DNA of 64,000 nt from an uncultured Candidatus Saccharibacteria bacterium. Its GTDB lineage: Bacteria; Patescibacteriota; Minisyncoccia; Phycocordibacterales; PALSA-1337. Numbering within the stretch: the first letter of the stretch is position 1; each line of letters opens with the position of its first letter. Where the stretch lies: assembly GCA_964467225.1 (NCBI GenBank), contig CAYXPQ010000002.1:7901-71900 (forward strand), given 5' to 3'. Of the stretch, positions 3,891-45,932 are shown piece by piece. The notes under the pieces are model-generated. The model saw nothing but the letters and a program-made list of their open reading frames with translations. It was not told the DNA's origin and searched no databases. The position numbers and the translations under genes are program-made.

Positions 3891-5141
3891 CTACTTCTTA
3901 GCAAGCCACTCTGGTTCTTGTCTAACCAATAAATCAGAAGCTCTGTCTGGATCAGACAACAAAATCTTTGTAGCTCTTTCTAATCTAATAGATTGAGAAC
4001 CCTTTAGTAAGACTATATCACCCTCCCCAATTATTCCTTTTACATATTCACCAGCATTTATTGATGAATCAAAATGTACTGAATCTTTACTCATTAGTTT
4101 AGCTCTTGGTCCAACTGTTACTAGAATATTGCAGACTTTCATTGCTTTCTCGCCAATTTTCCTATGTTCATCAGTAGAATATTTACCCAATTCCATCATA
4201 TCTCCTAATACTGCTATTTTTTTGCCTGTAGTCTCAATTTTAGATAAAGCATTCAACGCTTCGCTAACAGCATCTGGTGATGAATTGTATGTATCATCTA
4301 TAAGAGTACTACCATTTATTCCAGACAAAATATTCATTCTGCCCTTTGATGGAATATGATTTGGTATGGATTCAACTATTTTATTAATGGAAATATTTCT
4401 AGCAATTCCCACTACAGATGCAGCAAGAACTGGATAAATAAATTGATTACCAATAGCTCCCTTGATATTTACAGGAATACTGTTACCTTCATAATTTAAT
4501 TTAAATAATACTCCAGATTTTATATTCATAGATATATCTGATGCAGATATTGTTGCAGAGTTGTCTATACCAAATGTCATTACTTTCTGTTTATAATTTT
4601 TACTTGCCTCTACAAGACGCTTGTCATCAGCGGAAACAATCAGTGTTCCACTATTTTTCAAGGATTCTGCCAAGTATAATTTCTCTTTCAATACATCCTC
4701 AGGTGTAGGGAAAAATTCAGCATGAGCAGGAATTTCACTGACCTTTGTAATAACAGCAATATCCGTTTTCAACCATTTTGATACTTTTTTTATATCATTA
4801 GGATGATCTGCACCAACTTCCAGAACAAGACATTCTGGATATTTGGATTTAAATAAAATCAGCTCAAGACCATAGAAAATATTTTTTAACCAAATAGCAA
4901 AATCGCTCCAGCCATTTTGACAGCCAAGAATTGTTAGTGGTATACCAATATCACTGTTGAAACTCTTTTCGCTTTTCCTTACATATGAGTTATTGGTCAG
5001 AACAGTATAAATAGCATCTTTTGTTGATGTTTTTCCTACACTTCCAGTTACCGCTACTATAAATGGCTTATATTTCCTTATAATTAATTTTGACTCAAGT
5101 ATAAGTATAAATACAATTATTTTCTTTATTATAAATTTCAT
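3891..5141 (-). CDS. murF: UDP-MurNAc-tripeptide--D-Ala-D-Ala ligase
   Basis: 416 aa. The Mur ligase P-loop VAVTGSVGKTSTK and a C-terminal MurF-type domain are present. It lies in the dcw cluster. Confidence 0.85.
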   Translation of the reverse strand: MKFIIKKIIVFILILESKLIIRKYKPFIVAVTGSVGKTSTKDAIYTVLTNNSYVRKSEKSFNSDIGIPLTILGCQNGWSDFAIWLKNIFYGLELILFKSKYPECLVLEVGADHPNDIKKVSKWLKTDIAVITKVSEIPAHAEFFPTPEDVLKEKLYLAESLKNSGTLIVSADDKRLVEASKNYKQKVMTFGIDNSATISASDISMNIKSGVLFKLNYEGNSIPVNIKGAIGNQFIYPVLAASVVGIARNISINKIVESIPNHIPSKGRMNILSGINGSTLIDDTYNSSPDAVSEALNALSKIETTGKKIAVLGDMMELGKYSTDEHRKIGEKAMKVCNILVTVGPRAKLMSKDSVHFDSSINAGEYVKGIIGEGDIVLLKGSQSIRLERATKILLSDPDRASDLLVRQEPEWLAKK

Positions 5142-8708: not shown

Positions 8709-9062
8709 TTAAGCGAAGGCTTCTTTCTCTAATTTAGTAATTCTAAACTTATGATCTTGAAGAATTGGTAGAATTTCTTGTTTTGTTACCATATTGTTAT
8801 TTATTTCAGCAACATTCAAGTTGATTTGAGTAATACTTAACTTAACTCCTGCCAAATCAAGCTTAATCTCAGAAATTTCCTCTCTTACATTACCAAATTC
8901 TTCATATACCTTCTTGAAGCTATTTGCTGTCATCACTGCTAAACCCTCAATCTCTTTTTCAATGTGAACTTCTAATGAATTAAATCTATTATCTACATGA
9001 TCCTTGAAATCTTTAAGATCATTTCTTAGGCTCATAATGTACTTTGGTTCCGTTTCATCCAT
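8709..9062 (-). CDS. Coiled-coil hypothetical protein; paralog of the 41108..41617 protein (shared C-terminus DHKxRIxxLEKxxFA)
   Basis: 117 aa and helical. Its C-terminal LQDHKFRITKLEKEAFA matches LNDHKARIVELEKVVFAI of the 41108..41617 product. Confidence 0.4.
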   Translation of the reverse strand: MDETEPKYIMSLRNDLKDFKDHVDNRFNSLEVHIEKEIEGLAVMTANSFKKVYEEFGNVREEISEIKLDLAGVKLSITQINLNVAEINNNMVTKQEILPILQDHKFRITKLEKEAFA

Positions 9063-9198
9063 ATTTTTTGTTTTTTAAAAATAATAATTTTCACGTAACA
9101 TTTGGGTACGAATGTTAATGTAATTATAAATTATATTATCTCGAATACAAGATAAAATAGCATCAAGAAATGAATTTGATTTGACGTAAATAGATAGA

Positions 9199-31291: not shown

Positions 31292-31453
31292 CTAGATTAT
31301 TACTATAATAAATATAGCAGCAATATGTGCCTTATTAACCATTGACTTTCATGGTCATTTATGATACATATCTAATGTAGATTTCCTTTACCAGATGTGA
31401 TGAACATTGGTTGAAAGGAAACGAAACTTTGACAACTAGTAGAAAGACATGTT

Positions 31454-32266
31454 ATGGCAAACCCAACAAATCCGCCTGGACCGACACCGAATCCGACACC
31501 AACTCCAGCGCCTGCTCCACAGCCTGCGCCGAATCCGACACCTGCTCCACAACCCCCAAGGAGAATCTCGAGAACTCTGCCTAGTTTGACTCAATTCTGG
31601 AACAAACATTACATGAAATTTTGGGGGGTGTTAGGGGTTTTCCTTGTACTGGTTTTTTTTGTTTCTGTATTTCTTATCATCGACCCTGTGGGAAGATATC
31701 AGAACTATAAGAAACAGCATACCGAAGAGGATTCGAAATCCCAAACTTCACCCAACACAAGCGATTTGGTAACAGTTCCGATAACCAACACCTCTCCCGA
31801 TTCGATCGTACTAGACAGCAACAGCAGAGAAGGTGTGTCTGTTAGTCACTCGACTAACGGCAATGCCATAAAAGTTGTGGGCAACAAAGATTCCCGAGTA
31901 ATAATCAGCATCGGGAGTGACAACCCCACGATTGCTCAATCTCGAAACCCCCTACTCAACCCGGACAGGGTGATCAAGCTCGATGCCTTGAGAGACGGGA
32001 AAATTGAAGCCATTACTGGCTTTTACTACATCACGAATACGGTAAATGCCCTGGAAAACGTTTTGTTCCAGATACCGACGGGATGGGCTATGCAAGCCTC
32101 TACTCTTCCATATCCACCAGGGATGGTGAAGGCGTTAGATGAGCGAGGAAATCCGCTTAATGGTAAGTTGGTAAGTGGAGGTTGCATGTTGGTTCAGAAT
32201 TGCAGTTCCACAATCGATGTAGAACTAAGATGGGAGTGTATGATAATTGCCACAAGTGGCAAGTAA
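31454..32266 (+). CDS. Membrane-anchored protein with Pro-rich N-terminal low-complexity tail (GC-rich island gene 1)
   Basis: 270 aa with a PTPNPTPTPAPAPQPAPNPTPAPQPP tract, one TM, and an extracytoplasmic domain ending in a Cys cluster. The gene is GC-rich. Confidence 0.5.
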   Translation: MANPTNPPGPTPNPTPTPAPAPQPAPNPTPAPQPPRRISRTLPSLTQFWNKHYMKFWGVLGVFLVLVFFVSVFLIIDPVGRYQNYKKQHTEEDSKSQTSPNTSDLVTVPITNTSPDSIVLDSNSREGVSVSHSTNGNAIKVVGNKDSRVIISIGSDNPTIAQSRNPLLNPDRVIKLDALRDGKIEAITGFYYITNTVNALENVLFQIPTGWAMQASTLPYPPGMVKALDERGNPLNGKLVSGGCMLVQNCSSTIDVELRWECMIIATSGK

Positions 32267-32425
32267 CTTCCATCACTCAAAGGGGCGTCACGCAAGTGGC
32301 GCCCTTACTTTTTATATTTAATCATTTATCAATTTATAATGATTTTTCATCATTGACTTACATCAAAAATCATGCTATTATACTAAGTAGACTTTAGTGA
32401 CTTATCCAAGTCTCCTCTACACTTT

Positions 32426-33418
32426 GTGTATTGGGAAATGAGGAAAAGTTTTGACAATCACTGGAAAGAGAGAATGAAAAATAATGACATTTCATACCTA
32501 GGAGCATTCCTTAGGTTCATCCTACTTGGAGGTATTGTGTCGGTAGTCATCTGGTTGATTCTCGGAACAAACACCAAGAATACCCTGTTCATAGGGTTCT
32601 TGGTATGGGGATCACTGTACTTCTTTGTTTTGTTTGATCGCTTTTGGATTAACCCAGACGCAAACACCCAGGTCATACTACAAAATTATTTCCAAAAACC
32701 CAGTAACGGTGGTTATGGAAATATGGTAGACGATCTTGAAATACCAAAAGGACAAAGAGTGGTGGGTACCGGCTGGTCACCAAAGAGGTTCTTTGAGTAT
32801 CCAGTTGGAAATCCAATAGCTACCAAGAATGAGGAAGTTAGAAAACCGATTGAAATCAGGGATAAAAATAACATACCGTTTTCTATTACTCTTCGATTCT
32901 TCTTGAGACCAATCAAAGGTCACTATCTGGCTCGATATCCTTTAATACCAGATGATGTAGCGAAAGACTACTTTACTGGGAGATTCACACAATACATGGA
33001 AGGTGTATTGGCTGACAAAGACGGGGACAAAGATGTCATCAACAAACTTGAAGATGCCAAGAGTGACTTTGCATTAGGTCTTGAGGCAATCTTCGGTGGT
33101 TCAAATACCATTAGTGATGATGAAAAAAGGTATGCAAGAACCGTTCATGACATTGCAATTGTTGAGATTGCAAAAGGAAAAACCGCTCAAGCTGCAGCAC
33201 AAGTCGAGGTGATGGCTCAACAACTGGCCACCGCAACGGAAACTCTTATTAGGAAGGGGGTAGATCCGAGCATAGCAGCTTCCATATCAGCAGCATTAGC
33301 TGAAACTAATGCTGATATAAGGATATTTGGCATCAGTGGTGCAGAACATCTCACACACCTTGGACTCGGTGCTGACACTGATAAATCCAAAGGTCAGAAG
33401 GGAGGCAAATCAAAATGA
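32426..33418 (+). CDS. Membrane protein with SPFH/band-7-like domain and Ala/Gln-rich coiled coil (GC-rich island gene 2)
   Basis: 330 aa with two N-terminal TM helices, a mixed alpha/beta domain, and a C-terminal AKGKTAQAAAQVEVMAQQLATATE coiled coil with a Lys-rich tail. Confidence 0.45.
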   Translation: MYWEMRKSFDNHWKERMKNNDISYLGAFLRFILLGGIVSVVIWLILGTNTKNTLFIGFLVWGSLYFFVLFDRFWINPDANTQVILQNYFQKPSNGGYGNMVDDLEIPKGQRVVGTGWSPKRFFEYPVGNPIATKNEEVRKPIEIRDKNNIPFSITLRFFLRPIKGHYLARYPLIPDDVAKDYFTGRFTQYMEGVLADKDGDKDVINKLEDAKSDFALGLEAIFGGSNTISDDEKRYARTVHDIAIVEIAKGKTAQAAAQVEVMAQQLATATETLIRKGVDPSIAASISAALAETNADIRIFGISGAEHLTHLGLGADTDKSKGQKGGKSK

Positions 33419-33786
33419 ATACTAAGAAATTAGGAAAATGGCTTGGTGCCGCATTCCTACTACTGATGTGGATGCTTTACAGATCTAGCACGTGGTCAAA
33501 TACTGAGAAATCAGATCAAGCCACCACCTTCACCACCCCCATCACCCCCAGCGAATGGACCTGCATACCCACCAAAGGTAAAGACCTCCATTTCTCAATC
33601 ACCCCAACCAATGGGGTGAAACTCAAATACACCGTTGTACTCGACGGCAATATGAGCAACAAGTTTGTCTTTCCAGGGACAAACATACCGCCACACTTGT
33701 ACTATGGTGTGACAAATCTCTGGGTCAAGCTTAATAGTGGACAGATCCATAATGTTGGATACTTGTCCTACTATTGGACTGACTAG
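33415..33786 (+). CDS. Small secreted protein (GC-rich island gene 3)
   Basis: 123 aa with a signal peptide (MNTKKLGKWLGAAFLLLMWMLYRSSTWS). It overlaps the previous gene by 4 nt. Confidence 0.45.
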   Translation: MNTKKLGKWLGAAFLLLMWMLYRSSTWSNTEKSDQATTFTTPITPSEWTCIPTKGKDLHFSITPTNGVKLKYTVVLDGNMSNKFVFPGTNIPPHLYYGVTNLWVKLNSGQIHNVGYLSYYWTD

Positions 33787-33793
33787 AGACCAA

Positions 33794-33830
33794 GAGACCT
33801 GCACGCGAGCGTGCAGGTCTCCTTTCTTTT
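33794..33830. terminator. Strong GC-rich bidirectional terminator at the island/pilin-array boundary
   Basis: Perfect 12-bp stem GAGACCTGCACG-CGAG-CGTGCAGGTCTC followed by CTTTCTTTT. Confidence 0.6.
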
Positions 33831-33852
33831 AAATTTTTTAGTAATTCAGTAA

Positions 33853-34152
33853 CTAGAATGGTAATACTTCGGGCTGTCCAACTGTATTAGCGACAAATCT
33901 TATTATTCCATATACAGACACCATAATGAATATTCCCACTACTCCCCATAATATATGATTCTTGGATTGATTCCTTCTATCTTCATCTCCCCTGAAGAAT
34001 CCATACAATCCCCATATAAATACTAGAATTGTGACCCCAAATAAAACTTGAATTACAGGCATAACAATATTATCTACAATTTTTGGTACTATAGCATTAA
34101 GAGCCGCATCTGCATTTGAGGCACCATAAACAATTGTAAATAATGGAAACAT
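33853..34152 (-). CDS. Small two-TM pilin-like protein, paralog 1 (VirB2/TrbC-like architecture)
   Basis: 99 aa with two hydrophobic helices separated by the charged loop RGDEDRRNQSK. It is similar to the four upstream paralogs. Confidence 0.5.
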   Translation of the reverse strand: MFPLFTIVYGASNADAALNAIVPKIVDNIVMPVIQVLFGVTILVFIWGLYGFFRGDEDRRNQSKNHILWGVVGIFIMVSVYGIIRFVANTVGQPEVLPF

Positions 34153-34158
34153 ATAAAC

Positions 34159-34530
34159 TTATCTACTTACATTAGTATTTGGATCTATTGTCTTTGGGAA
34201 AAATTGAGTTGGAACTGTATCATCTGTTCTAAATGATCTCTTAAGTATATTTACAAGACCCCAAATAGATAGAATAACAAATAATCCAATAACACCATAT
34301 AATATAGCACGTCCACCTTCTTTTCTTTGATCTTCACCACCTGCGATCAAATACCTTACAACATTCACAACAATCCAAATAACAGAGAATGAAATAAGGA
34401 GAATTATTATTGTATCGCCGATCGTTGTTGCCTTTCGAGTTACATCATCAAGATTATTTATTTGACCAGTAACTTGAGCAAAAACTGATACAGGCACGAG
34501 AGAAATCAAAAACGCAATGAATTTTTTCAT
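34159..34530 (-). CDS. Small secreted two-TM pilin-like protein, paralog 2
   Basis: 123 aa: signal peptide, TM1, loop IAGGEDQRKEGGR, then TM2 ending WGLVNIL. Confidence 0.5.
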   Translation of the reverse strand: MKKFIAFLISLVPVSVFAQVTGQINNLDDVTRKATTIGDTIIILLISFSVIWIVVNVVRYLIAGGEDQRKEGGRAILYGVIGLFVILSIWGLVNILKRSFRTDDTVPTQFFPKTIDPNTNVSR

Positions 34531-34626
34531 AATTAATTATTTAATAATAAACTTCTAATACAGTCCATATTGTAACATTTAGATACCCATTTACAAACTT
34601 ATCTGTGGAAAGAAAGAATAGTGATA

Positions 34627-35181
34627 TTACATATCTCTATTACTATCATAATCAGTATTTGATCCAGAACCAGGATTTGAAACACCACCAAGATTTGTCG
34701 AGCCACCAGTATTAGATACTCCACCCAAATTTGTGGATCCACCTGTATTTGAAACACCACCAAGATTTGTTCTAGAACCTCCTCCTGAATTAAAGATAGG
34801 ATTTGAACTACTATTGTTACTAGATCTAAAACTTCCAAATATAGTATTAGGTGGCAAGTTATTATCTAACTTGAAGCTATTCATCAATATATTTACCAAA
34901 CCCCAAAAAGAAAGCATAACAAAGAAACCTATCACACTCCACATTACATATAGTCCAGCCTCTTTCTTTGCAGTTACATCATCACTACCAGAAATAAAAT
35001 ATTTGTAAACATTGTATACAAACATGAGTACAGCTAATGAAAGTATAAGATATATTGCAATTTGTATATAATCAGTTATTACTCCTGCCAAACCCCTTAA
35101 ATCTTTAGTTTGTTGAGCATAAGATAGGAATGGTATAAAAAATAATGAAGTTATAATTGTTTTTAATTTAAAATTTTTCAT
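34627..35181 (-). CDS. Small secreted two-TM pilin-like protein, paralog 3, with a C-terminal Gly/Ser/Asn repeat tail
   Basis: 184 aa: signal peptide, TM1, loop ISGSDDVTAKKEAG, TM2 ending WGLVNIL, then 3x GGVSNTGGSTNL. Confidence 0.5.
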   Translation of the reverse strand: MKNFKLKTIITSLFFIPFLSYAQQTKDLRGLAGVITDYIQIAIYLILSLAVLMFVYNVYKYFISGSDDVTAKKEAGLYVMWSVIGFFVMLSFWGLVNILMNSFKLDNNLPPNTIFGSFRSSNNSSSNPIFNSGGGSRTNLGGVSNTGGSTNLGGVSNTGGSTNLGGVSNPGSGSNTDYDSNRDM

Positions 35182-35186
35182 ATTTA

Positions 35187-35645
35187 TTATTTTATTGGAC
35201 TATTAAGAATACCCTCTTTCACCACTCCAGCTTGCTTCAAAGTATTTTGTACTATAGTAACGATTACCTTGGAACTTATCAGTACTGCTAATCCTATTAT
35301 TATATATGTAAATTTCTTTTTTGCATCTTCTATCTCTTTTGGATTTCCTTGAGCCAAGACGAATTTGAAACCTGTGAATATAATTGCAAATACTGCATAT
35401 AGTATTCCTATATAAATTAGTATGTCTATGCCTAAATAAATAACTTCTTCAACGCTATCAACCTTTAGAGGGTTCTGAAGCTTCACTAACTGCTGAACTG
35501 GTGTTGTTTTATTTGGATCAGGTTTACCACTAACCGAACCATCAGACACCTTTCCACTGACACTTCCATCGGACTGTGCTAGAACAATATTGGATGCAGA
35601 TAATAATAATATTGTTATTAAAAAAATTTTAATTAATTTATTCAT
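35187..35645 (-). CDS. Small secreted two-TM pilin-like protein, paralog 4, with an N-terminal SDGSVSGK repeat
   Basis: 152 aa: signal peptide, 2x SDGSVSGK, TM1, loop AQGNPKEIEDAKKK, TM2. Confidence 0.5.
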   Translation of the reverse strand: MNKLIKIFLITILLLSASNIVLAQSDGSVSGKVSDGSVSGKPDPNKTTPVQQLVKLQNPLKVDSVEEVIYLGIDILIYIGILYAVFAIIFTGFKFVLAQGNPKEIEDAKKKFTYIIIGLAVLISSKVIVTIVQNTLKQAGVVKEGILNSPIK

Positions 35646-35646
35646 A

Positions 35647-36072
35647 TTATTTTAAATTAGACAGTGTATCTATTCCAGTAAAATTAGGATTCTTTATCCA
35701 ATCTACCAATGTTGTAACAATAAACCATGCTGTCAATGCAATTATAAAACCTATAATTGCATTTTTCATTATCTCTCGAGACCTCTTCAGATCTGTCTCG
35801 GAACCACTAATATGCAGATAACCTGCGTATGCGAACATTCCGGCTACTACTGGAAGTGAAAGTGTAAATGCCCAATTTATCAGTTGATTTATTATTACTA
35901 TAAGATTATAGAAATTACATGATATATTCCTATCTGGTTCAACTAGTTCATTAACCACTCCATCGCATTTTACTAATCCACTATAATCAAGTGAGGCTCC
36001 AACACCCTGAGCCGAAGAGTCATTTGGTATTAGAACTAGTGATAATAGAAATATTAATAATAACTTTTTCAT
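35647..36072 (-). CDS. Small secreted two-TM pilin-like protein, paralog 5
   Basis: 141 aa: signal peptide, mature region with 2 Cys, TM1 (VVAGMFAYAGYL), loop ISGSETDLKRSRE, TM2. Confidence 0.5.
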   Translation of the reverse strand: MKKLLLIFLLSLVLIPNDSSAQGVGASLDYSGLVKCDGVVNELVEPDRNISCNFYNLIVIINQLINWAFTLSLPVVAGMFAYAGYLHISGSETDLKRSREIMKNAIIGFIIALTAWFIVTTLVDWIKNPNFTGIDTLSNLK

Positions 36073-37379
36073 ATATTATTTAAAACAATATCATATTCAT
36101 CACTACCATCCTGCAACGCTTGCAATGAATTCTTCCTTCCACTTGTTACTGATTCAACAATATTCTTAAATAATTTTGTCGATTCATTCTTATTAGTGTC
36201 TAACCATCCCTTGGAGATAACTGCTGAATCGTAGAATATAGATAAATATGGATCTGTAGTTCCAGAAATAATCAGGTCAATTTTGACTGGTGGTAAATAT
36301 GCTAAATCTATCATCTCTTGAAGTGCATCACTGGATATCAGTGAAGAAAGTACAGTAAATGCAGATGCAGGATCTGCTGAACTCCTAACAATAGAAAATC
36401 CATACATAGCTCCATATGTAGCACGGTTCTGTGCACCTCGAGCTTGAGGGATAGGTGCAATATCGAAGTTTAAATTTGGATTTTTATTTCTCAAATCAGA
36501 AATCTCGGAAGCAAAACCAAAATATGTTGCAAGATTACCAGACAAAAAGGAACTCTTAGAATTTGCTATAGAACGATTCCAAGAATAATTAGGATCAGTT
36601 GGATTTGAGAATTGAGTAAAGAAATCCAATGCAGGTTTTGAAGTCTTAGTACCATCAAATCCTCTACTACCTAGTGAGCTGGCTAATGAAATTGGAGCAT
36701 TAGTATCAAAATTTGTCTTATATGTTATAGGATTACCTGCTTGAAGAAATAGTGTACCTAGTATTTCTCTAGCATGAGAAATATTTGTAAATTCACCCAT
36801 AGCTATGGCACTCTTTCTTACATTTGAATTTACATCTTTGATTGTTAACTTATTATTTAGATTTGTAAATTCATCCCAATATTTAGGGTAAGTTGGTATA
36901 CCTGCATTAATAAATGTATCCCTATTCCAATACATTACCATAGGGTCAATTACGAAAGGCAAAGCCAGTGTACCTCCTGACACAAGATACAATTCTGCTT
37001 GCGATATAAAACTACTTTTAAAATCTCTTTCTGTAAGAGCTGTTGGTGGAATCAGAGTAATCTTGTCTACATATCTAGATATTAAATCTTGAGACACCAA
37101 TATCGCATCTGGTCCTTGTCCTCGTGCCAAAGCCTCTATAAATGTTTTGTCAAAATTTAATTCTGATATTTCTGTATAATTTATTTTTAATTGTATTGCT
37201 CTTGTTGAATTAATTCTGCCAACATAATCATTAAAAACCCTAGCTGGAAATGTCCCCCATACAGCTATTGTGGGCAATTCAGTCTTCTGGCTTGCCCCTT
37301 TATAGGTGGCAAATAATGCCACACCAATGATTGCAAAAACTACAAATATTGCTGTTAAAATTGCTTGAAATTTACTCAT
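36069..37379 (-). CDS. Membrane-anchored extracellular solute-binding protein (SBP family 1, MalE-like); orphan, no permease adjacent
   Basis: 436 aa with an N-terminal TM anchor and SBP_bac_1-like motifs (GQGPDAILV, MYWNRDTF). Confidence 0.65.
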   Translation of the reverse strand: MSKFQAILTAIFVVFAIIGVALFATYKGASQKTELPTIAVWGTFPARVFNDYVGRINSTRAIQLKINYTEISELNFDKTFIEALARGQGPDAILVSQDLISRYVDKITLIPPTALTERDFKSSFISQAELYLVSGGTLALPFVIDPMVMYWNRDTFINAGIPTYPKYWDEFTNLNNKLTIKDVNSNVRKSAIAMGEFTNISHAREILGTLFLQAGNPITYKTNFDTNAPISLASSLGSRGFDGTKTSKPALDFFTQFSNPTDPNYSWNRSIANSKSSFLSGNLATYFGFASEISDLRNKNPNLNFDIAPIPQARGAQNRATYGAMYGFSIVRSSADPASAFTVLSSLISSDALQEMIDLAYLPPVKIDLIISGTTDPYLSIFYDSAVISKGWLDTNKNESTKLFKNIVESVTSGRKNSLQALQDGSDEYDIVLNNI

Positions 37380-37927
37380 GGTTTTTTAAATATAATTCCA
37401 TAATGATGGTCGCCTGCATCAAAACTTTTTTCTAATTCCATTCCAACCTTTTGGAAAATACCTTCAGCCAACAAGCGCGGAACTAAAGTCTTAGGACTTA
37501 GTGTGGTACCTTGAGCCCAATCGATCACCATTAATTTGCCACCGGATTTTAAAAGTCTTTTGATCTCAAGAGCTAAATTTTCCCTATCAGCAGATTCAAC
37601 TTGAAACAATGTATTGGAAAGTATTACTCGATCAGCAATAGATTCTCTTAATTTTGTCCCACCAATTTTTTCTATATTTCCCCAAACAACTTCCACATTA
37701 TGCAGACCCATGAGGCCCGCAGATGTCTTGATTTTAGATAGTAAATCTTGCTGAACATCTACTGCATATACCATTCCACGAGGTCCGACTTTCTTGGCAG
37801 ATTCAATAACATAAAAACCTGACCCTGCACCAAGATCAACAACCCTCATGCCATCTGTAATACCACATTCAGCAATATTTTTTTGCGGATCAGAAAACAT
37901 AGGTATATTATACCCTTTTATAGACAA
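37376..37927 (-). CDS. Class I SAM-dependent methyltransferase
   Basis: 183 aa with motif [12 protein letters not shown] and an acidic post-I residue in AVDV. Confidence 0.7.
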
Positions 37928-40392
37928 ATAAGTGAAGCCAAGGAATCCCCATCTCTTAATTTCATTACTCTAACACCTTGAGTTGATCTTCCTAATGTTG
38001 GAATCTCTTTTAGATTAACTCTAATTACTTGACTTTTTTTGGACATTGCAACTATTTCCTCTATATCATCAGTCACAACTTTTGCAGCCATAAGTGCACC
38101 CGTCTTGTCAGTTACATTCATTGTAAGTATTCCGGATCCGCCTCTATTCTGGACTTTATATTCATCAAGTGTTGTTTTCTTTCCATAGCCATGTTCACCC
38201 ATCACAAATAGTGCTGGATTCTTAGCATCTTTTGAGACAACATCTGCACTAATTACTGCATCATCTTTACCAAGTTTTATTATTCTAACTCCTGTTGCAT
38301 TTCTACCCATTTCTCTTACATCACTTTCATCAAATCTGATTGACTGACCATCCCGAGTTGCTATAACTACAGAATCACTCTTTGAAACAAATGATGCAGA
38401 GATTAGTTCATCTCCACTTTCAAGAGTAATAGCAATAAGTCCCGATCTCCTTACATCATGGAAATGCTTGGCTGAGCTCTTCTTGCCTGTACCATTTCTT
38501 GTAACCATCATAAGAGACAGTCCATCTGCTTCCTTTTTATTCTTTGGCATAGGAAGTATTGAGGTGATTTTCTCACCATCTGAAAGAGAAAGAAAATTCA
38601 TTACAGACTTGCCTCTTGTGGCTCTTTTGCCTTCTGGAATATCATACATTTTGATCTGATAAGCCTTACCCTTGTCCGTAAAGAACAAGATATCATTATG
38701 GGAGCTTGCATATACAAGATGAGTAATGAAATCTTCTTCTTTTGTATCAAGGTCTACAACCCCAACGCCCCCACGCTTCTGTTGGCGATATTCATCCGGA
38801 TTTGTTCTTTTTATATATCCACCCTTTGTTAGAACAAGAACACTTTCTTCATCTGCTATCAAATCCTCTGGATTGAAGTCCTTTAGTGCATGCTTTACTA
38901 ATCTCGTTCTTCTTTCATCACCGTATTTAGATTTAATCTCTGTTAATTCATCTTTGATAATACCCCTAACCTTCTTCTCACTACCGAGAATTTCTTTTAA
39001 TTTAATAATCAATTCTTGTATTTCTTTTAATTCATCTAGAACTTTCTTTCTCTCAAGACCAGCTAACTTCTGTAGTCTCATTTCAAGAATTGCTGTTGCC
39101 TGCTTATCTGAGAATTTGAATTTCTTCATCAAATTTGCATGTGCTTCTATAGCATCCTTTGATTCTCGTATCAAAGTAATTATTTCATCAATATGATCAA
39201 GAGCCTTTTTCAAGCCTAACAAGATATGCTCTCGGTCTTCTGCTTTTGTAAGATCAAACTGTGTTCTTCTTCTTACAACCTCTATTCTATGAGTCACAAA
39301 TTCTTCCAAAAGAGATTTTAGAGAAAGAGTTTGAGGAACTCCATTTACAAGTGCAACAATATTTACATGAAAAGTATCTTCTAATTGAGTATGCTTATAT
39401 ATAAAATTAAGAACTTTCTCAGGATATGCACCAGATTTGAGATCAATAACGATTCTCATTTCCTTATCTGATTCATCTCTAAGGCCCTTTATACCATCAA
39501 TAACCTTATCTCTTACAAGATCGGCAATTTTGATAATTAAATCAGACTTTGTAACTCTGAATGGTATTGACTTGATAATTATTTGGAATTGACCCTTTTT
39601 GTCTTCTACAACCTCAGCTTCACCTCTTACAACGATACCTCCTCTACCTGTGGTATATGCATGGTGAATGTCTTTCTCTCCATACATTATTCCTCCAGTT
39701 GGAAAATCAGGACCTTTTATAAACTGTAATAAATCTTCATTTGTTGCACTCTTGTTATCAATAAGATGTGTTGTAGCATCAATAACCTCACCAAGATTAT
39801 GAGGGGCAATATTTGTTGCCATACCAACTGCAATACCTAGAGTTCCATTTAGTAGAAGATTCGGTACAGCTGTAGGCAAGACTGTAGGTTCCTTTCTTGT
39901 ACCATCATAATTTGGATTAAAATTTACTGTATTCTTCTCAATATCCTTTAATAATTCGGATGCAAGCTTTGACATTCTTGCTTCTGTATAACGCATAGCA
40001 GCTTGTGGATCTCCATCAATATTACCGAAGTTACCTTGACCCTGAATAAGTGGGTATCTCATCTTGAAGTCCTGTGCCATACCTACCATAGAATCATAGA
40101 CAGCCACATCTCCATGTGGGTGATAATTTCCCAGGACATCTCCTACTACCACGGCTGATTTACGGAATTTAGCTGAGGAAGTCAAACCTTTCTCATGCAT
40201 TGAATATAGTATTCTTCTATGTACTGGTTTTAATCCATCTCTTACATCTGGTAATGCACGATCTGTAATAACTGACATAGCATAGTCAAGAAATGACTCT
40301 CTCATCTCTGTAGTGATATTTCTTCCAATTATACCCTTTGCTGGATCTCTTGGGATCTGATTTTCAGTATTATCAGTTTGTTTTTTAGCCAT
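37918..40392 (-). CDS. gyrA: DNA gyrase subunit A
   Basis: 824 aa containing [14 protein letters not shown], the active-site Tyr region, and C-terminal beta-pinwheel repeats. Confidence 0.95.
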
Positions 40393-40503
40393 ATTTGTCA
40401 GACTATTATAGCAAAATCATTAATAATTGTCATATTAAATTAGTATTGACTTATACATATTTTTGTGATAGGTTTTGATTGGCGTTCAGTAGTTCTAGAC
40501 ACA

Positions 40504-40535
40504 AACCAAACAGGCGCAGTGAGCCTTAATCACTG
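40504..40535. repeat. Outer inverted repeat, left copy (32 bp; shared 5' leader of the 40550 gene)
   Basis: AACCAAACAGGCGCAGTGAGCCTTAATCACTG is the exact reverse complement of 44554..44585 and contains the palindrome CAGTGA-N7-TCACTG. Confidence 0.85.
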
Positions 40536-40549
40536 GGAAAGGTAGAATT

Positions 40550-41053
40550 ATGCTTTGGGTAATTATTACAGCCATATTCACTTCCTTCTTTGCTGGAATT
40601 CTGTCGGTTTTTTCCTGCAGGACTTTTGAGAAGCGAGCTGCGGGCTTAAGGATTTTCTTTGTATCAGGATTCACTCTGGTAGCAGTTCTTCTTACATGTA
40701 AAGTCTGTTACGATAGAAGTTTTGAGGAAGGCGCTATAACGCGTGAAGGAATTTCAATTCCGGCCGCGCTTCGCCCTGAGCTTGAAGGTAAGGTTATCAC
40801 ACCGTTGGGTGTAGTCTGTCACGGTGAAGTGATATTTGTAATCGCAAATGACAAGTTATACACATTGCTTGGCACCGTCCTAGAGAAAGATCTCACCCCC
40901 ACCAACATGGTCGGTAGAAAATTAATCTTCTACCAGAAAGGTAAAGTCACTCACATCGGTGTCGTGCAACCTGAAGCACAGGCAGTCCCCACCCAAATCG
41001 GCTATACGAACACGAATGAGCATTATCAAAATGCTCTACCGAAGGTGAAATAA
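40550..41053 (+). CDS. GC-rich small membrane protein A (2 N-terminal TM helices plus soluble C-terminal domain)
   Basis: 167 aa. The gene is GC-rich, preceded by the outer repeat and an RBS, and followed by the inner-repeat terminator. Confidence 0.45.
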   Translation: MLWVIITAIFTSFFAGILSVFSCRTFEKRAAGLRIFFVSGFTLVAVLLTCKVCYDRSFEEGAITREGISIPAALRPELEGKVITPLGVVCHGEVIFVIANDKLYTLLGTVLEKDLTPTNMVGRKLIFYQKGKVTHIGVVQPEAQAVPTQIGYTNTNEHYQNALPKVK

Positions 41054-41064
41054 CACCCTCATAC

Positions 41065-41110
41065 ACCCCGTCAGCAAATCTGAAAAGAAATGCTCACGGG
41101 GTGGTTTTTA
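41065..41110. repeat. Inner inverted repeat, left copy (46 bp; hairpin terminator)
   Basis: ACCCCGTCAGCAAATCTGAAAAGAAATGCTCACGGGGTGGTTTTTA is the exact reverse complement of 44155..44200. It forms a long hairpin plus T-run, giving a terminator in both orientations. Confidence 0.85.
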
Positions 41111-41617
41111 TATTGCAAAAACAACTTTCTCTAATTCTACAATTCTAGCCTTATGATCATTTAATAAAGTTTGCTCTAAATTTGTTGATCTGACCTCATA
41201 TCTACCAATATGAGCTTCTATCTTAGTCATTTCCTCTTTTATTTCCTGAGTAGTAGATTCTAATCTGTCTAATCTATTATCAATAATTTCAAATTCAACA
41301 GAATGTTCATCTAATTTTTCATTTACTCTTCTAAATTCATTTTCATTTATAAGTGCCAAATCGTTAATTTCTTTGCTAATTTCGTTGAATCTAGAATCAA
41401 TTGTGGAGAATTTAGAATCTATTGAAGAAAATTTTGAGTCAATTTTATCAAACTTTTCATCTATTTTAGAGAATTTCTCATCGATCTTATCAAATTTTTC
41501 GTCTATAATATCAAATTTCTTATCCATCTTATCGAATTTCTCATCTATCTTATCGAATTTTATATCTAACTTCTTATTTAAATCTATAATGTAATTTGGT
41601 ACTGTTTCTATCATCAT
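41108..41617 (-). CDS. Coiled-coil protein with tandem heptad (21-nt) repeats KFDKIDE; paralog of 8709..9062
   Basis: 169 aa containing about 9 tandem repeats (KFDKIDE/KFSKIDE/KFSSIDS) and a C-terminus shared with the 8709 protein. Confidence 0.5.
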   Translation of the reverse strand: MMIETVPNYIIDLNKKLDIKFDKIDEKFDKMDKKFDIIDEKFDKIDEKFSKIDEKFDKIDSKFSSIDSKFSTIDSRFNEISKEINDLALINENEFRRVNEKLDEHSVEFEIIDNRLDRLESTTQEIKEEMTKIEAHIGRYEVRSTNLEQTLLNDHKARIVELEKVVFAI

Positions 41618-41750
41618 TATTTTTAATTAGTAATTAATAATCGCACGTAACATTGGGTACTTATGTTGAGTGAATTATAAACTACTTAAATATGACAATG
41701 CAAATAAAATTACAGATAAGACACAGAAAAATTAATTAGTGAAATTATGA

Positions 41751-42056
41751 TTATCTATTACCTGGTAAAATCTCTATTGAATCATTTGTAAATTCAACTT
41801 TATTAGAACCAAAAAATACACTCTTGATATCACTCCAAGCATCTAATGCGGTAGCAGTGAGACTAGAAACAGGTGCATCAACTTTAACAGCAGTATTTTT
41901 TAAATCTTTTGCAATTTTTGTATTTGAGACAAAACCAAATGAGGCGATCCATCCAGCAAATACGACAAATGTAAATGCAGATGCAAACATAAATGCTACA
42001 CGTCTTCGAATGTGTTCTGGTTTAGATTTTAAATTATTTACATAATCTATCATCAA
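41751..42056 (-). CDS. Hypothetical small membrane protein
   Basis: 101 aa with one TM helix. Confidence 0.4.
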   Translation of the reverse strand: MMIDYVNNLKSKPEHIRRRVAFMFASAFTFVVFAGWIASFGFVSNTKIAKDLKNTAVKVDAPVSSLTATALDAWSDIKSVFFGSNKVEFTNDSIEILPGNR

Positions 42057-42066
42057 TATAATTATA

Positions 42067-42717
42067 CTATTCTTTTGATGAATCTAGAAGCATCACATCA
42101 CCCTCTTTACCCTCCAAATCTTTCTTCTTCAATGTTAGCTTTGATTCTGGACTTGGATTCTCACCAGCCTCCTTCAAAAACTGTTTTAATGAGTCTTTCT
42201 CTCCAATATCTCCATAATGCATCGGTATAATTATCTTTGGCTGTAATGATACAGCGAGCTTATATGCTTTTGCAGGATCTAGAACTCCTTCACCACCGAT
42301 AGGTACAAATAATATATCTATCTCATCAAGAGCTTCAATAGTTTCTGCTTTTAATTCTGAATTATTGATAGCACCTAGAAAGCAAATATTCATATTTTCA
42401 AGAGAAACAGTATATATAGTATTTATTAAATCCTTACCACCGTATTTAGACTCCGAAGGAAGACCCTTAATAAATACATCATTAACCTCATATTCGCCAG
42501 GACCAGAAATAATAAAAGGCTTCTTGTCACCATGAGCTACTTGATCGAATCCAATAAAATCTTCATGGTATGTAGTATTGAGAACTATATCAGTACCAAA
42601 TCTACTAGATTTCAACTTTGAATCTTTGGATATTGGATTAAATGCAATTGTTGTATTACCAAACTGAACCTTGAAAAATTCCGCTCCGAAATATGTAATA
42701 ATCATAAGTAATGGCAT
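42067..42717 (-). CDS. MBL-fold metal-dependent hydrolase (Lactamase_B_3-like)
   Basis: 216 aa with an HxHxDH-like region around TYHEDF/H and a C-terminal IIIPMHYG typical of UlaG-like MBL-fold proteins. Confidence 0.6.
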   Translation of the reverse strand: MPLLMIITYFGAEFFKVQFGNTTIAFNPISKDSKLKSSRFGTDIVLNTTYHEDFIGFDQVAHGDKKPFIISGPGEYEVNDVFIKGLPSESKYGGKDLINTIYTVSLENMNICFLGAINNSELKAETIEALDEIDILFVPIGGEGVLDPAKAYKLAVSLQPKIIIPMHYGDIGEKDSLKQFLKEAGENPSPESKLTLKKKDLEGKEGDVMLLDSSKE

Positions 42718-42747
42718 TATAACAGAAATCTATGATATCGTTAAGAT

Positions 42748-43431
42748 ATGCAAGATAATACATGGGAAAAGGAATACAGAGACCCAAAACTCATATCACT
42801 CAGTGATGAGCCGATAAAATGCTTGAAGGATTTTGTAAGATATTTAAGAAAAGAAGAAAAAATTGAATTAAATAATTTAAATATCCTAGATCTTGGCTGT
42901 GGTAATGCAAAAAATAGCATTTATATTGCTAATCAGGGAGACAATAACAAAGTCTTTGGAATAGATATATCTCCCACCGCTATCAACTTAGCTAGAAATG
43001 CATATACTGCTGGTAATTTCCAAGTTGGTAATATCGGACAATCATTTACTTTTCCTGATAGAAATTTTGACATTATTCTAGACATAACTTCATCAAATTC
43101 TCTTACAGAAAGTGAAAGAGGTATCTATCTTTCAGAAATTAATAGAACAATTAAGAATAAAGGTTATTTATTCGTACGAGCTTTATGTAAAGACGGCGAT
43201 TCTAATGCCAAGAATTTATTAAAATCAAATCCAGGTAAAGAAAAAGATACCTATATAATGCCCGAGCTTGGACTGACTGAAAGAGTTTTTTCAAAAGACG
43301 ATTTAATTTCCTTTTATTCTGACTCATTTGAATTATTGTATTTAGATAAAGAGACACATTATACTAAGTTTAATAATAGATCCTACAAAAGGAATTTCTG
43401 GGTGAGTGCGTGGACGCATACACTAAATTGA
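42748..43431 (+). CDS. Class I SAM-dependent methyltransferase
   Basis: 227 aa with motif I ILDLGCGNAKNS and a post-I GIDIS. Confidence 0.7.
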   Translation: MQDNTWEKEYRDPKLISLSDEPIKCLKDFVRYLRKEEKIELNNLNILDLGCGNAKNSIYIANQGDNNKVFGIDISPTAINLARNAYTAGNFQVGNIGQSFTFPDRNFDIILDITSSNSLTESERGIYLSEINRTIKNKGYLFVRALCKDGDSNAKNLLKSNPGKEKDTYIMPELGLTERVFSKDDLISFYSDSFELLYLDKETHYTKFNNRSYKRNFWVSAWTHTLN

Positions 43432-43559
43432 CATAGGAATAAAATTTGATATGATAGTAGTAGCACTTGGATGGGCTTGCCCTCTCACGGTCAATGTTTA
43501 TCCAAACCGTAGCCAAGTGCCGACAAAACGTATCACTTTAATTAGTGGTATTTTTTGTT

Positions 43560-44042
43560 TTAATCTATTTCCGAATCACCATCATACAATTTCCTATTGT
43601 TTAAAATTTTATTTTGCTTCCAAAATGGAATTATGCTCCAGAAATATGGTTGTGAATCATTAATCTGCTTTACAATAATTTTGATTCTTATCTTTCTATC
43701 AATTACAGCAATAAACTCATAGTATGTAACATCAACAAGAATCCTCTCATTTCTCTGATTACTTCTATTTAGTTCAAACATTCTTGTTTCATTAATTCCT
43801 TGTAAAGTTTTCGAATCTTGGATTACTAAGGGAGCATATTTAAAGAGTCTTAGTCTGGTATATTGATCTAATATAGATCTTGCTTTGTGTCTATCTTTAA
43901 ATTTTAAGTGCTCCTTGCCCTTTGAGTTAAAAGTGATTTTACTTCTCAGATACGGACACCATACTTCGCCAATATTTGAGTATAAATATTCTGCCTTGTC
44001 TTTAATCTCATCAAAATCCATTGGTGTTTTACTATTCTCCAT
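43560..44042 (-). CDS. Hypothetical protein (beta-rich, basic)
   Basis: 160-aa ORF with no family recognised. Confidence 0.4.
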   Translation of the reverse strand: MENSKTPMDFDEIKDKAEYLYSNIGEVWCPYLRSKITFNSKGKEHLKFKDRHKARSILDQYTRLRLFKYAPLVIQDSKTLQGINETRMFELNRSNQRNERILVDVTYYEFIAVIDRKIRIKIIVKQINDSQPYFWSIIPFWKQNKILNNRKLYDGDSEID

Positions 44043-44154
44043 GTATTTGTAATCATTAATTACTAATCCTATAACCCTACCAAATCAGTTATTAAGAAAA
44101 GCTTAAGAAAAGTGTTGTTTTCACCATTCAGCAACAATTTTTAAAATATGTAAA

Positions 44155-44200
44155 TAAAAACCACCCCGTGAGCATTTCTTTTCAGATTTGCTGACGGGGT
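44155..44200. repeat. Inner inverted repeat, right copy (46 bp; hairpin terminator)
   Basis: Exact reverse complement of 41065..41110. Confidence 0.85.
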
Positions 44201-44229
44201 GGGTGTTAAGAGGATAATCCAAAACAACT

Positions 44230-44538
44230 TCACCCTCTGTTCACTTCATCGACTGGAGAAGGTTTGGTAGTACAATAATGCTTTTCAGCAAGCTCATATC
44301 CTTCTATCTTTCCATCCTGCTTCCCTCTTGCGTATCCACCATTAAATCCCAAAATCCTCGCCTTCATGTGAATACACTCTGCATAAACATACAAAAGCAG
44401 TAATAAGACTGGGGATTTAACATTGGCACTCAGTGTGCAAAAATAACTTGAAATACAAAACAAAATAATTACCAGCCACATTGTTAATGCACACTTACCC
44501 CAAAAATTCGCAGAGCGAGATTGCAGAAACTTTGTCAT
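44230..44538 (-). CDS. GC-rich small membrane protein B (distant paralog of protein A)
   Basis: 102 aa. The internal MWLVIILFCISSYF resembles MLWVIITAIFTSFF of protein A. It is flanked by the same leader and terminator repeats as gene A. Confidence 0.45.
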   Translation of the reverse strand: MTKFLQSRSANFWGKCALTMWLVIILFCISSYFCTLSANVKSPVLLLLLYVYAECIHMKARILGFNGGYARGKQDGKIEGYELAEKHYCTTKPSPVDEVNRG

Positions 44539-44553
44539 AACTCTTTTCCTCCT

Positions 44554-44585
44554 CAGTGATTAAGGCTCACTGCGCCTGTTTGGTT
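44554..44585. repeat. Outer inverted repeat, right copy (32 bp; shared 5' leader of the 44538 gene)
   Basis: Exact reverse complement of 40504..40535, followed on the minus strand by AGGAGG and ATG. Confidence 0.85.
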
Positions 44586-44780
44586 GTTGTTTGAACGAAC
44601 TAAATACAAAATTAACTTATCATAAATATATGAGGTAGTCAATAGCAATTTTATGCATTTTATATTATAGTATGTCAACGGTTAGATTAACTTAAATTAA
44701 CCGATTATTAACAAATCCTATACGCTAAAACCGCACCTTTTATCATTAATAATTAAAAAGCGGATCGTATAGATATAAAT

Positions 44781-45932
44781 ATGCCTAGAAAAACAAAAGA
44801 AGAATCAGTAGTAGAAGCAACAGAAACAAAGAAAGTTAAAAAAGAGAAGGTTGCTGTGGAGCCAAAATTAGACACAGTAATGGACAGAATTATTTTTAAT
44901 TCTGCTAATCCCCCATTAACTGGAGATCTAGTTGAAGGTCCAGTTATAAATATAGAGAAATCAGCAGTATATATTGACCTAGCACCATTTGGTACAGGTA
45001 TTATATTTGGTCGTGAATATTTAACAGCAAGAGATATTATCAAGAAGATAAATATTGGTGATGTTGTTGCTGCAAAGGTAGTAGATACAAATAACAAAGA
45101 AGGTTATATTGAGCTTTCTCTAAAAGAAGCAAGACAAGCCCTTATCTGGAGTGAAGCAGAAGCTGCAATTAATAATAAAGCAATACTAGAATTACCAATT
45201 GTTGAAGCTAACAAAGGAGGTTTGATAATACAATGGCAAGGTATTTCAGGATTCCTTCCTGCATCACAACTAAAAACAGAACATTATCCAAGAGTAGCTG
45301 ATGGAGACAAGGATAAGATTCTTGAAGAATTAAAGAAATTAATCGGAACAAAGATTTCTGTTTCAATAATTTCTGCTGTACCAAAGGAAGGTAAGCTTAT
45401 CTTCTCAGAGAAGAGTCCAGAGCAGAAAGACAAGGAACATATAATTGGCAAATACAAAGTTAACGATACAGTTGAAGGAACAGTTACAGGAATTGTAGAC
45501 TTCGGAGTATTTGTTAAATTAGAAGATGGCTTAGAAGGACTTGTACATATTTCAGAAATAGACTGGTCTCTTGTAGAAGATCCTAGATCTCTATTTAAAG
45601 TAGGTCAGAAGATCAAGGTTAAGGTAATTGAAATTAAGGAAGGCAAGGTTTCTCTATCAATCAAAGCATTGAAGGAGAATCCATGGATGGAAGCTTCAAA
45701 GAAATACAAGAAAGATATGCTAGTTGAAGGAGTTGTAATCAAATTCAATAAGCATGGAGCTCTTGCATCTATAGAAGAAGGAATCGCTGGACTTGTTCAT
45801 GTTAGTGAATTCGGTTCAGAAGAGAAATTAAGAAAGAATCTTGAACTTGGCAAGTCATACAATTTCAAGATCACTCTATTCGATGTGAAGGAACAAAAGA
45901 TGGCATTATCTTTCACTGGGGAGAAGAAATAA
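44781..45932 (+). CDS. rpsA: 30S ribosomal protein S1 (short, 4 S1 domains)
   Basis: 383 aa with repeated S1 OB-fold motifs (GxVxGxVxxIxDFGxFVxL). Confidence 0.85.
   Translation: MPRKTKEESVVEATETKKVKKEKVAVEPKLDTVMDRIIFNSANPPLTGDLVEGPVINIEKSAVYIDLAPFGTGIIFGREYLTARDIIKKINIGDVVAAKVVDTNNKEGYIELSLKEARQALIWSEAEAAINNKAILELPIVEANKGGLIIQWQGISGFLPASQLKTEHYPRVADGDKDKILEELKKLIGTKISVSIISAVPKEGKLIFSEKSPEQKDKEHIIGKYKVNDTVEGTVTGIVDFGVFVKLEDGLEGLVHISEIDWSLVEDPRSLFKVGQKIKVKVIEIKEGKVSLSIKALKENPWMEASKKYKKDMLVEGVVIKFNKHGALASIEEGIAGLVHVSEFGSEEKLRKNLELGKSYNFKITLFDVKEQKMALSFTGEKK

Follow-up and report, generated by a model that had tools for sequence, protein, structure and literature searches.

The 64-kb stretch of DNA analysed here (the window; 34% GC) comes from an uncultured 'Candidatus Saccharibacteria' bacterium, and exact-match scans identified its relatives as metagenome-assembled genomes (MAGs) of the same group. 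Between gyrA and an rpsA-like gene it carries two nested pairs of inverted repeats that bracket a segment with a small membrane-protein gene at either end. These two genes, termed A and B, face inward, and each lies between a leader and a terminator that it shares with the other. Comparison with related loci suggests that each gene forms a cassette together with its promoter, leader and terminator, and that the shared flanks probably serve as homology arms for the homologous recombination or gene conversion that moves the cassettes.

A repeat search identified an inner inverted repeat of 48 nt (41064-41111 / 44154-44201; 100% complementary) and an outer inverted repeat of 37 nt (40499-40535 / 44554-44590; 95%) with an exact core of 32 nt (40504-40535 / 44554-44585). 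The first-pass annotation of this DNA had described perfect repeats of 32 and 46 bp. The former is the exact core of the outer pair; the perfect identity of the latter was borne out, whereas its length measured 48 nt. The additional match that had been placed beside the inner repeat is TAACACCC, present at 41051-41058 and, reverse-complemented, at 44201-44208. With up to three mismatches allowed, each repeat occurred exactly twice in the window and not at all in 100 shuffled sequences. The terminator core GGGGTGGTTTT was found in the window solely at the two cassettes, matches to a 23-mer of the leader were limited to two GTDB genomes and one metagenome contig, and the exact terminator had no match in a scan of GTDB genomes. 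Within the window, the terminator was rejected as a motif resembling an uptake sequence or a genome-wide terminator, and the repeats appear not to be the common genome-wide terminator or promoter motif that the annotation had allowed for. The features of the two cassettes are as follows.

40446..40474, plus strand: putative promoter of cassette A, TTGACT (40446-40451), a 17 nt spacer and TAGGTT (40469-40474), the -10 element having a TG one base to its 5' side
40512..40535, plus strand: leader core, copy 1, in the outer repeat, AGGCGCAGTGAGCCTTAATCACTG, with the hairpin CAGTGA-GCCTTAA-TCACTG (40517-40535)
40550-41053, plus strand: gene A, 167 aa, from the listing of open reading frames (ORFs)
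41064..41111, plus strand: predicted terminator of A, inner repeat copy 1, a long hairpin with imperfect pairing, CACCCCG...CGGGGTG, and after it GTTTTTAT
44614..44642, minus strand: putative promoter of cassette B, TTGACT (44642-44637), a 17 nt spacer and TAAGTT (44619-44614)
44554..44577, minus strand: leader core, copy 2, in the outer repeat, followed by the Shine-Dalgarno sequence AGGAGG and the ATG of B
44230-44538, minus strand: gene B, 102 aa, from the ORF listing
44154..44201, minus strand: predicted terminator of B, inner repeat copy 2, identical to the terminator of A

The two units have the same anatomy. In both, an A/C-rich stretch of ~35 nt separates the -10 element from the leader core, and a 5' untranslated region (UTR) of ~65 nt contains the 24-nt core, whose 6-bp hairpin abuts the Shine-Dalgarno sequence. 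That of A, GGAAAGG (40536-40542), lies directly 3' of the leader hairpin. The stop codons are followed by CACCCCGTCAGC...GCTCACGGGGTG and then by GTTTTTAT, and the stop codon of a convergent coiled-coil gene lies inside the T-run of the A terminator. As both units share this anatomy, we conclude from the sequence that the outer repeat is the 5' UTR core, and the inner repeat the predicted intrinsic terminator, of one module that is repeated twice in inward-facing orientation. We infer the promoters, which would be sigma70-like, from the conserved TTGACT-17-TAGGTT/TAAGTT arrangement; a consensus scan listed an alternative promoter, TTGCTA-18-TATGAT, overlapping that of B. Beyond the repeats, each side has a diverged copy of one putative promoter, and these sequences are not target-site duplications.

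The A protein was predicted to contain two N-terminal transmembrane (TM) helices and a small beta-rich C-terminal domain. An AlphaFold2 model (pLDDT 70) placed helices at residues 2-20 and 26-59 and strands at residues 85-138. Five proteins of the A family were found in 5.8 billion clusters, and a profile search of 1.84 billion representatives recovered 14 clusters (50% identity); the family is lineage-restricted. For B, which also has two predicted TM helices, two proteins were found in 5.8 billion. Its only known relative, encoded at the related locus L006, is 85% identical over the first 66 aa and 19% identical over the remainder. Neither A nor B had a match in Pfam, PHROG, PADLOC or NCBIfam. 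The two genes had been taken for distant paralogs, but homology between them was not detectable (BLASTP E = 0.47; profile-sequence hhalign probability 1%), and the resemblance of their C-terminal tails, previously described as a common E(K)HY, was no better than chance. Derivation of the B tail from A or from L006 sequence was rejected as well, the similarity being no better than that of shuffled sequences. Gene A had a G+C content at third codon positions (GC3) of 0.44 and gene B one of 0.36, both above the values of 0.15-0.27 for the surrounding genes, in agreement with the GC-rich character ascribed to both. A blastn search of E. coli genomes with the GC-rich cassette, meant to reveal contamination or a synthetic construct, gave no match.

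The other genes of the interval and its two neighbours are listed below; their order between the repeats in the ORF listing and the Pfam matches was that given by the first-pass annotation.

37918-40392, minus strand: gyrA, neighbour on the A side
41108-41617, minus strand: coiled-coil repeat protein, 169 aa, with only coiled-coil-type family matches
41751-42056, minus strand: small TM protein gene, assigned to the ancestral backbone (block 41751..43431)
42067-42717, minus strand: MBL-fold hydrolase (PF13483), from Pfam, assigned to the ancestral backbone
42748-43431, plus strand: S-adenosylmethionine (SAM) methyltransferase (MTase), from Pfam, assigned to the ancestral backbone
43560-44042, minus strand: 160-aa protein without assigned function, a fast-evolving gene assigned to the backbone
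44781-45932, plus strand: rpsA-like gene with an S1 domain, neighbour on the B side

Pfam and PHROG scans detected no recombinase or transposase among the seven ORFs of 40.5-44.6 kb, as the annotation had also stated. The genes found near cassettes (gyrA, the rpsA-like gene, truB and methyltransferases) point to a chromosomal and not a phage or prophage setting, and a scan of viral contigs for the leader and terminator gave no matches.

The related loci contained between zero and three cassettes, located at the same two sites, beside gyrA and beside rpsA. Members of the A family adjoin gyrA in L001-L004, L019 and L022, and B is found beside rpsA in L006-L008 as well as in the window. Loci L006 and L007, in which the backbone is 88.6-91% identical to that of the window at the nucleotide level, have the order truB - rpsA, B, A167 (an A-type gene), the gene for a 133-aa protein, MTase, MBL, small TM, coiled-coil, A'157 (a second A-type gene) and gyrA. 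Their three cassettes each have a promoter, leader and terminator. The cassette-less relatives (L012-L014, L015-L016 and L017-L018) have neither a cassette nor the coiled-coil gene, and retain rpsA, the counterpart of the 160-aa gene, MTase, MBL, small TM and gyrA, with a spacer of ~139 nt between the small TM gene and gyrA. The order and orientation of the backbone relative to gyrA and rpsA are the same in L012-L018 and in the window. The 160-aa protein of the window is 29% identical to the 133-aa protein of L006 (E = 2e-13) and 22% identical to a 123-aa protein at the same position in L012 (E = 3e-5), which is a diverged homologue. As the cassette-less relatives keep these genes, we conclude from the comparison that the inner block (the 160-aa gene, MTase, MBL and small TM genes) is ancestral chromosome rather than cargo, and that the cassettes and the coiled-coil gene are accessory insertions. 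The coiled-coil gene lies beside A in L001-L004, L006 and L019 and is absent from L012, L015 and L017; it thus appears to be an accessory gene that accompanies the gyrA-side cassette.

The contents of the two sites differ between relatives. The site between the small TM gene and gyrA is empty in L012, L015 and L017, holds at least five types of A allele together with the coiled-coil gene in the window, L001-L004, L006 and L019, or carries other genes: in a more distant relative (that of P0020), a PemK-family toxin gene and a 129-aa gene replace the A cassette and the coiled-coil gene. This last arrangement suggests that accessory genes of various kinds are gained at the site, as at a hotspot. 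The site between rpsA and the 160-aa gene holds B in the window, B plus A167 in L006 and no cassette in L012. Several individual loci showed further peculiarities. On the metagenome contig L005 (190-1300), a transposase-like gene is inserted between the promoter and leader of a cassette of the gyrA-side type, directly before the leader, and on the contig L008 (~1125-1202) the A167 ORF is broken after ~33 codons by unrelated sequence. The GTDB MAG L004 contains two gaps of exactly 100 N (2009-2108 and 4348-4447), one of which lies exactly at the expected position of the B cassette, suggesting that repeated cassette flanks break short-read assemblies.

Ten cassettes each were aligned at their 5' and 3' ends. 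The leader core had a mean pairwise identity of 96.8%, compared with 70% in the promoter region, 55% between the -10 element and the core, and 52% between the Shine-Dalgarno sequence and the ATG. The ORFs behind this conserved leader have diverged to <40% identity. Variation in the leader was confined to one or two loop positions (UUAA, UUGA, UGAA, UCAA and UUGAA). The sequence ATTGACT of the putative promoter was nearly invariant, and TG precedes the -10 element in most copies. L023, the most distant member of the A family, which comes from a host of higher GC content, is without the leader. The 10 terminators aligned as one hairpin plus T-run with 13 consensus pairs, three of which showed compensatory changes, and with differing loops. 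From this alignment the terminator appears to be a homologous part of the module that diverges between genomes. The two terminators of the window are nevertheless 48/48 identical, loop included, and both have TAACACCC outside the hairpin, whereas the orthologous terminator of L006 differs in the loop and the T-run and is without TAACACCC. Since terminator stems vary between genomes, the 48/48 identity probably marks a recent intragenomic copy, or a conversion tract extending from leader to terminator.

Comparison of the window with L006 provided evidence that the same cassette occupies different sites. By blastn, the A cassette of the window (40504-41108) was 93.4% identical to the rpsA-side A167 cassette of L006 (2766-3370), with opposite orientation relative to the backbone, and did not align with the gyrA-side cassette of L006. 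Correspondingly, the A protein of the window is 92% identical to A167 and 38% identical to the gyrA-side A'157. The breakpoints of similarity between the window A and L006 A167 lie in the leader and in the terminator. At the other end of the segment, 44067-44201 was 91% identical to L006 3461-3326 (blastn), so that the sequence bordering the B terminator on its outer side (44067-44153) and that beyond the A167 terminator of L006 are orthologous. The B promoter region (44552-44643) was 92.4% identical over 92 nt to L006 2798-2708, the promoter of the A167 cassette, to which the B spacer is also closest. Alleles of A were mosaic. Residues 1-84 of P0003 are 90.5% identical to the window A and its C-terminal half is 87.7% identical to the L004 allele, while the N-terminal half of P0004 is 75% identical to the window A and its C-terminal half 98.6% identical to the L003 allele. 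The A167-type ORF of L001 is followed by an L003-type terminator. GC3 of the A family was 0.40-0.51 while that of the host gyrA genes spanned 0.23-0.69; this steady composition across hosts is consistent with a pool of cassettes moving among lineages. The proposal of the first-pass annotation that gene conversion or recombination acted on the flanks is thus supported by L006/L007, where this A cassette lies at the other site and is reversed relative to the backbone, by the mosaic alleles, and by the identity of the window terminators as opposed to the divergence of orthologous ones.

These comparisons suggest the following mechanism. The leader and terminator, being conserved in the cassette copies, would act as portable homology arms, and ordinary homologous recombination would copy, swap, duplicate or delete the ORF between them. 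Gene conversion may take place between the inverted copies within one genome, or alleles may be replaced once DNA has been taken up, the latter being suggested by the mosaic alleles and the breakpoints in the flanks. A plausible history of the window begins with an ancestor that had tandem B and A167 cassettes at the rpsA site, as in present-day L006. A167 and its terminator would then have been copied into the gyrA-side socket, and a deletion at the rpsA site would have fused B to the A167 terminator. With an A167-type cassette at the gyrA site and B joined to the A167 terminator, both pairs of flanks would be identical.

Several points weigh against exchange between such arms. The exchange is deduced from sequence comparison, which does not allow the events to be counted or their direction to be reconstructed; moreover, the related loci are a handful, mostly from metagenomes. 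At 32-48 bp, the arms come close to the minimum length for RecA-dependent exchange. Function alone could explain the invariance of the leader, such that identity of the outer repeat is by itself no proof of conversion. The distinct C-terminal tail and 3' UTR of B (44202-44339) are not traceable to A or L006 sequence. As for the control elements, the -10 element of A matches the consensus at 3/6 positions and a simple consensus scan did not list this promoter, while the stability of the leader hairpin is ordinary (z = -1.2 to +1.3) and shows no covariation to indicate that it acts as RNA.

Purifying selection on shared regulatory elements could in principle keep the flanks identical without any recombination, and a leader core that is near-invariant across ORFs <40% identical, in genomes whose gyrA genes are ~20% apart at the nucleotide level, carries the signature of functional constraint. 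As the sole explanation, however, selection is unlikely, given that orthologous terminator stems and loops vary and yet the window copies match at 48/48 positions including the loop, and that both copies share the TAACACCC element which L006 does not have. It also does not account for the same A cassette at different sites in the window and L006, or for the mosaic A alleles. An assembly artefact, by which ORFs were misplaced or a tandem copy was collapsed at the identical repeats, is highly improbable. Three k=31 Logan assemblies (L009-L011), apparently of the same strain, do break inside the 48-bp repeat, and L004 has its 100-N gap at the B position. Breaks of the former kind are expected at any repeat and are uninformative on orientation. 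An ordinary read exceeds the length of these repeats (32-48 bp), the independent contig L001 likewise joins an A167-type ORF to the coiled-coil gene, the location of B beside rpsA was confirmed in L006-L008, and diverged forms of the repeats are present in all relatives.

The remaining alternatives treat the bracketed segment as the unit that moves. The first-pass annotation had suggested switching of the shufflon or invertible-cassette type. The target of a recombinase encoded elsewhere would then be either the leader palindrome CAGTGA-N7-TCACTG or the terminator repeat, and the flip of the segment between the repeats would switch expression between A and B. Such a programmed site-specific inversion would fit the two perfect inverted-repeat pairs around the segment, the leader core with its inverted 6-bp pair around a 7-nt spacer, which recalls recombinase core sites, and the breakpoints in the leader and terminator between window A and L006 A167. 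We nevertheless consider it very unlikely. The seven ORFs include no recombinase, the junction of the coiled-coil gene with the A terminator is identical in 8/8 loci showing it (L001-L004, L006, L007, L019 and L022), the whole block has the orientation of the window in L004, L006 and L007, and no inverted variant was present among the related loci. In addition, A and B each have a putative promoter outside the repeat and a terminator, so that a flip would merely exchange two similar promoters, and in the one-cassette relatives L002, L003, L019 and L022 the leader is single-copy, making inversion impossible. Least credible of all is the composite mobile element that had also been proposed, with the A and B cassettes as its ends and the five inner genes as cargo. 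Inverted terminal repeats around a multi-gene segment and the atypical GC content of the A and B ORFs would suit such an element, but four of these genes (the 160-aa, MTase, MBL and small TM genes) lie between rpsA and gyrA in the cassette-less relatives L012-L018, and it is the cassettes and the coiled-coil gene that appear as insertions. Furthermore, the segment encodes no transposase, its terminal units encode small membrane proteins without a family match, and the sequences outside the repeats are diverged promoter copies, not target-site duplications.

Movement of single cassettes by recombination between their flanks invites comparison with several described systems. Phage morons are independent promoter-ORF-terminator units of atypical GC content that have been added between conserved genes (PMC3594210). 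The cassettes resemble morons in that each is a predicted autonomous transcription unit with its own terminator (hairpin covariation and T-run) and a putative promoter, in that some related genomes have them between conserved neighbours and others do not, and in their differing base composition (GC3 0.44/0.36 versus 0.15-0.27). They differ in lying between the chromosomal housekeeping genes gyrA and rpsA and not in a phage or prophage, and in sharing one homologous promoter-leader-terminator set within which ORFs are exchanged, whereas the control elements of morons are generally unrelated. In the minimal mobile elements (MMEs) of Neisseria, differing whole-gene cassettes lie between two conserved genes depending on the strain and are thought to be homologously recombined in, without mobility genes of their own (PMC3082526). 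Both sites of the present locus likewise have conserved flanking genes with differing whole-gene cassettes. Here, however, short conserved non-coding stretches of the cassette itself, the leader and the terminator, appear to supplement the flanking genes as homology arms; two inverted sites would exchange with each other, and DNA uptake is only presumed.

Integron cassettes and the arrays known as clusters of attC sites lacking integrases (CALIN) also consist of variable ORFs, each followed by a conserved imperfect inverted repeat, with variable copy number and possible tandem arrangement, as in L006. The cassettes described here have their own putative promoters and occur as inverted copies at two separate sites, and their 3' element, CACCCCG...CGGGGTGGTTTTT, is a GC-rich hairpin with a T-run typical of a terminator, without the GTTRRRY/RYYYAAC cores of attC. 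No intI or other integrase was found among the local ORFs of the segment. An integron cassette was ruled out by the putative promoters and by the 3' element without attC cores. Shufflons and invertase switches (Rci, Hin and hsdS invertons) share with this locus the inverted repeats that flank a segment with alternative genes at its ends. In contrast to these switches, the segment here is without a recombinase, was seen in one orientation in relatives, and ends in complete genes that are predicted to be independently transcribed; its repeats are a UTR and a terminator, not sites within coding regions or around a promoter. The system would be set apart from morons and MMEs by its chromosomal location in Saccharibacteria, members of the candidate phyla radiation, by the single homologous control set, by the exchange between two inverted sites, and by an undescribed, extremely conserved leader.

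The conservation of the leader suggests a regulatory role. Rfam gave no match at the gathering threshold across the whole window; at E <= 10 there was none over 40380-41130 and one chance-level snoRNA match over 43380-44700. A stable extended structure of the leader or UTR was rejected on the basis of z-scores near zero. The leader may be a post-transcriptional operator that co-regulates the cassette family, and it may just as well be a DNA operator bound by a dimeric protein. A GGC upstream of the hairpin could pair with the GCC in the hairpin loop to give a compact H-type pseudoknot with the variable UUAA as connecting loop. A short upstream frame, GTG AGC CTT AAT CAC TG., would render two of the loop variants synonymous, but the numbers are too few to weigh. 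A more far-reaching and rather doubtful possibility is that the leader, AGGCGCAGUGAGCCU(U/G/C)(A/G)AUCACUG, is an undescribed ligand- or protein-binding cis-regulatory RNA, one possible fold being the H-type pseudoknot (GGC/GCC plus CAGUGA/UCACUG). With the family terminator it would then form a socket in which small membrane-protein genes are plugged in, co-regulated and exchanged between sites and strains.

Other features of the window were noted. Between the MTase and 160-aa genes (43428-43562, plus strand), a promoter close to consensus, TTGACA-16-TATGAT with TG, precedes ~105 nt with a very stable predicted fold (-33.5 kcal/mol; z = -4.6; 0/200 shuffles as good) that comprises a three-way junction, a terminator hairpin and a U-run. 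This candidate small RNA had no Rfam match and no nucleotide match in L006 or L004. Pairing of the candidate (43458-43562) with the A and B leaders was considered and rejected, as it was no better than with shuffled sequences. A second region of the window (8709-9062, minus strand) encodes a 117-aa paralog of the coiled-coil protein. The motif CACGTAACATT(T)GGGTAC, which may be a common promoter or operator, precedes both coiled-coil genes (9091-9109 and 41643-41660) and is also found upstream of the L019 homologue. The region 31400-36100 contains a block of 42-48% GC (31.4-33.8 kb) beside a tRNA cluster, with genes for membrane proteins, one of which has a proline-rich N-terminus. This block is followed by a run of small proteins resembling genes annotated in relatives as type IV secretion system (T4SS)-pilin-like.

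For genome scanning, the locus illustrates that nested perfect inverted repeats can stem from duplicated control regions and gene conversion, and not from an invertible switch or a transposon. Saccharibacteria are episymbionts with reduced genomes, and to our knowledge the variation of their envelope proteins is poorly understood. The locus described here would represent a simple, machinery-free shuffling of small membrane-protein genes within a fixed promoter-leader-terminator frame, the ends of which double as recombination arms. Its leader is an unusually conserved 5' UTR element that is absent from Rfam and a candidate regulator of these genes. If the leader and terminator do constitute a socket of the kind outlined above, they would provide these bacteria with a chromosomal cassette system that operates without a dedicated recombinase.

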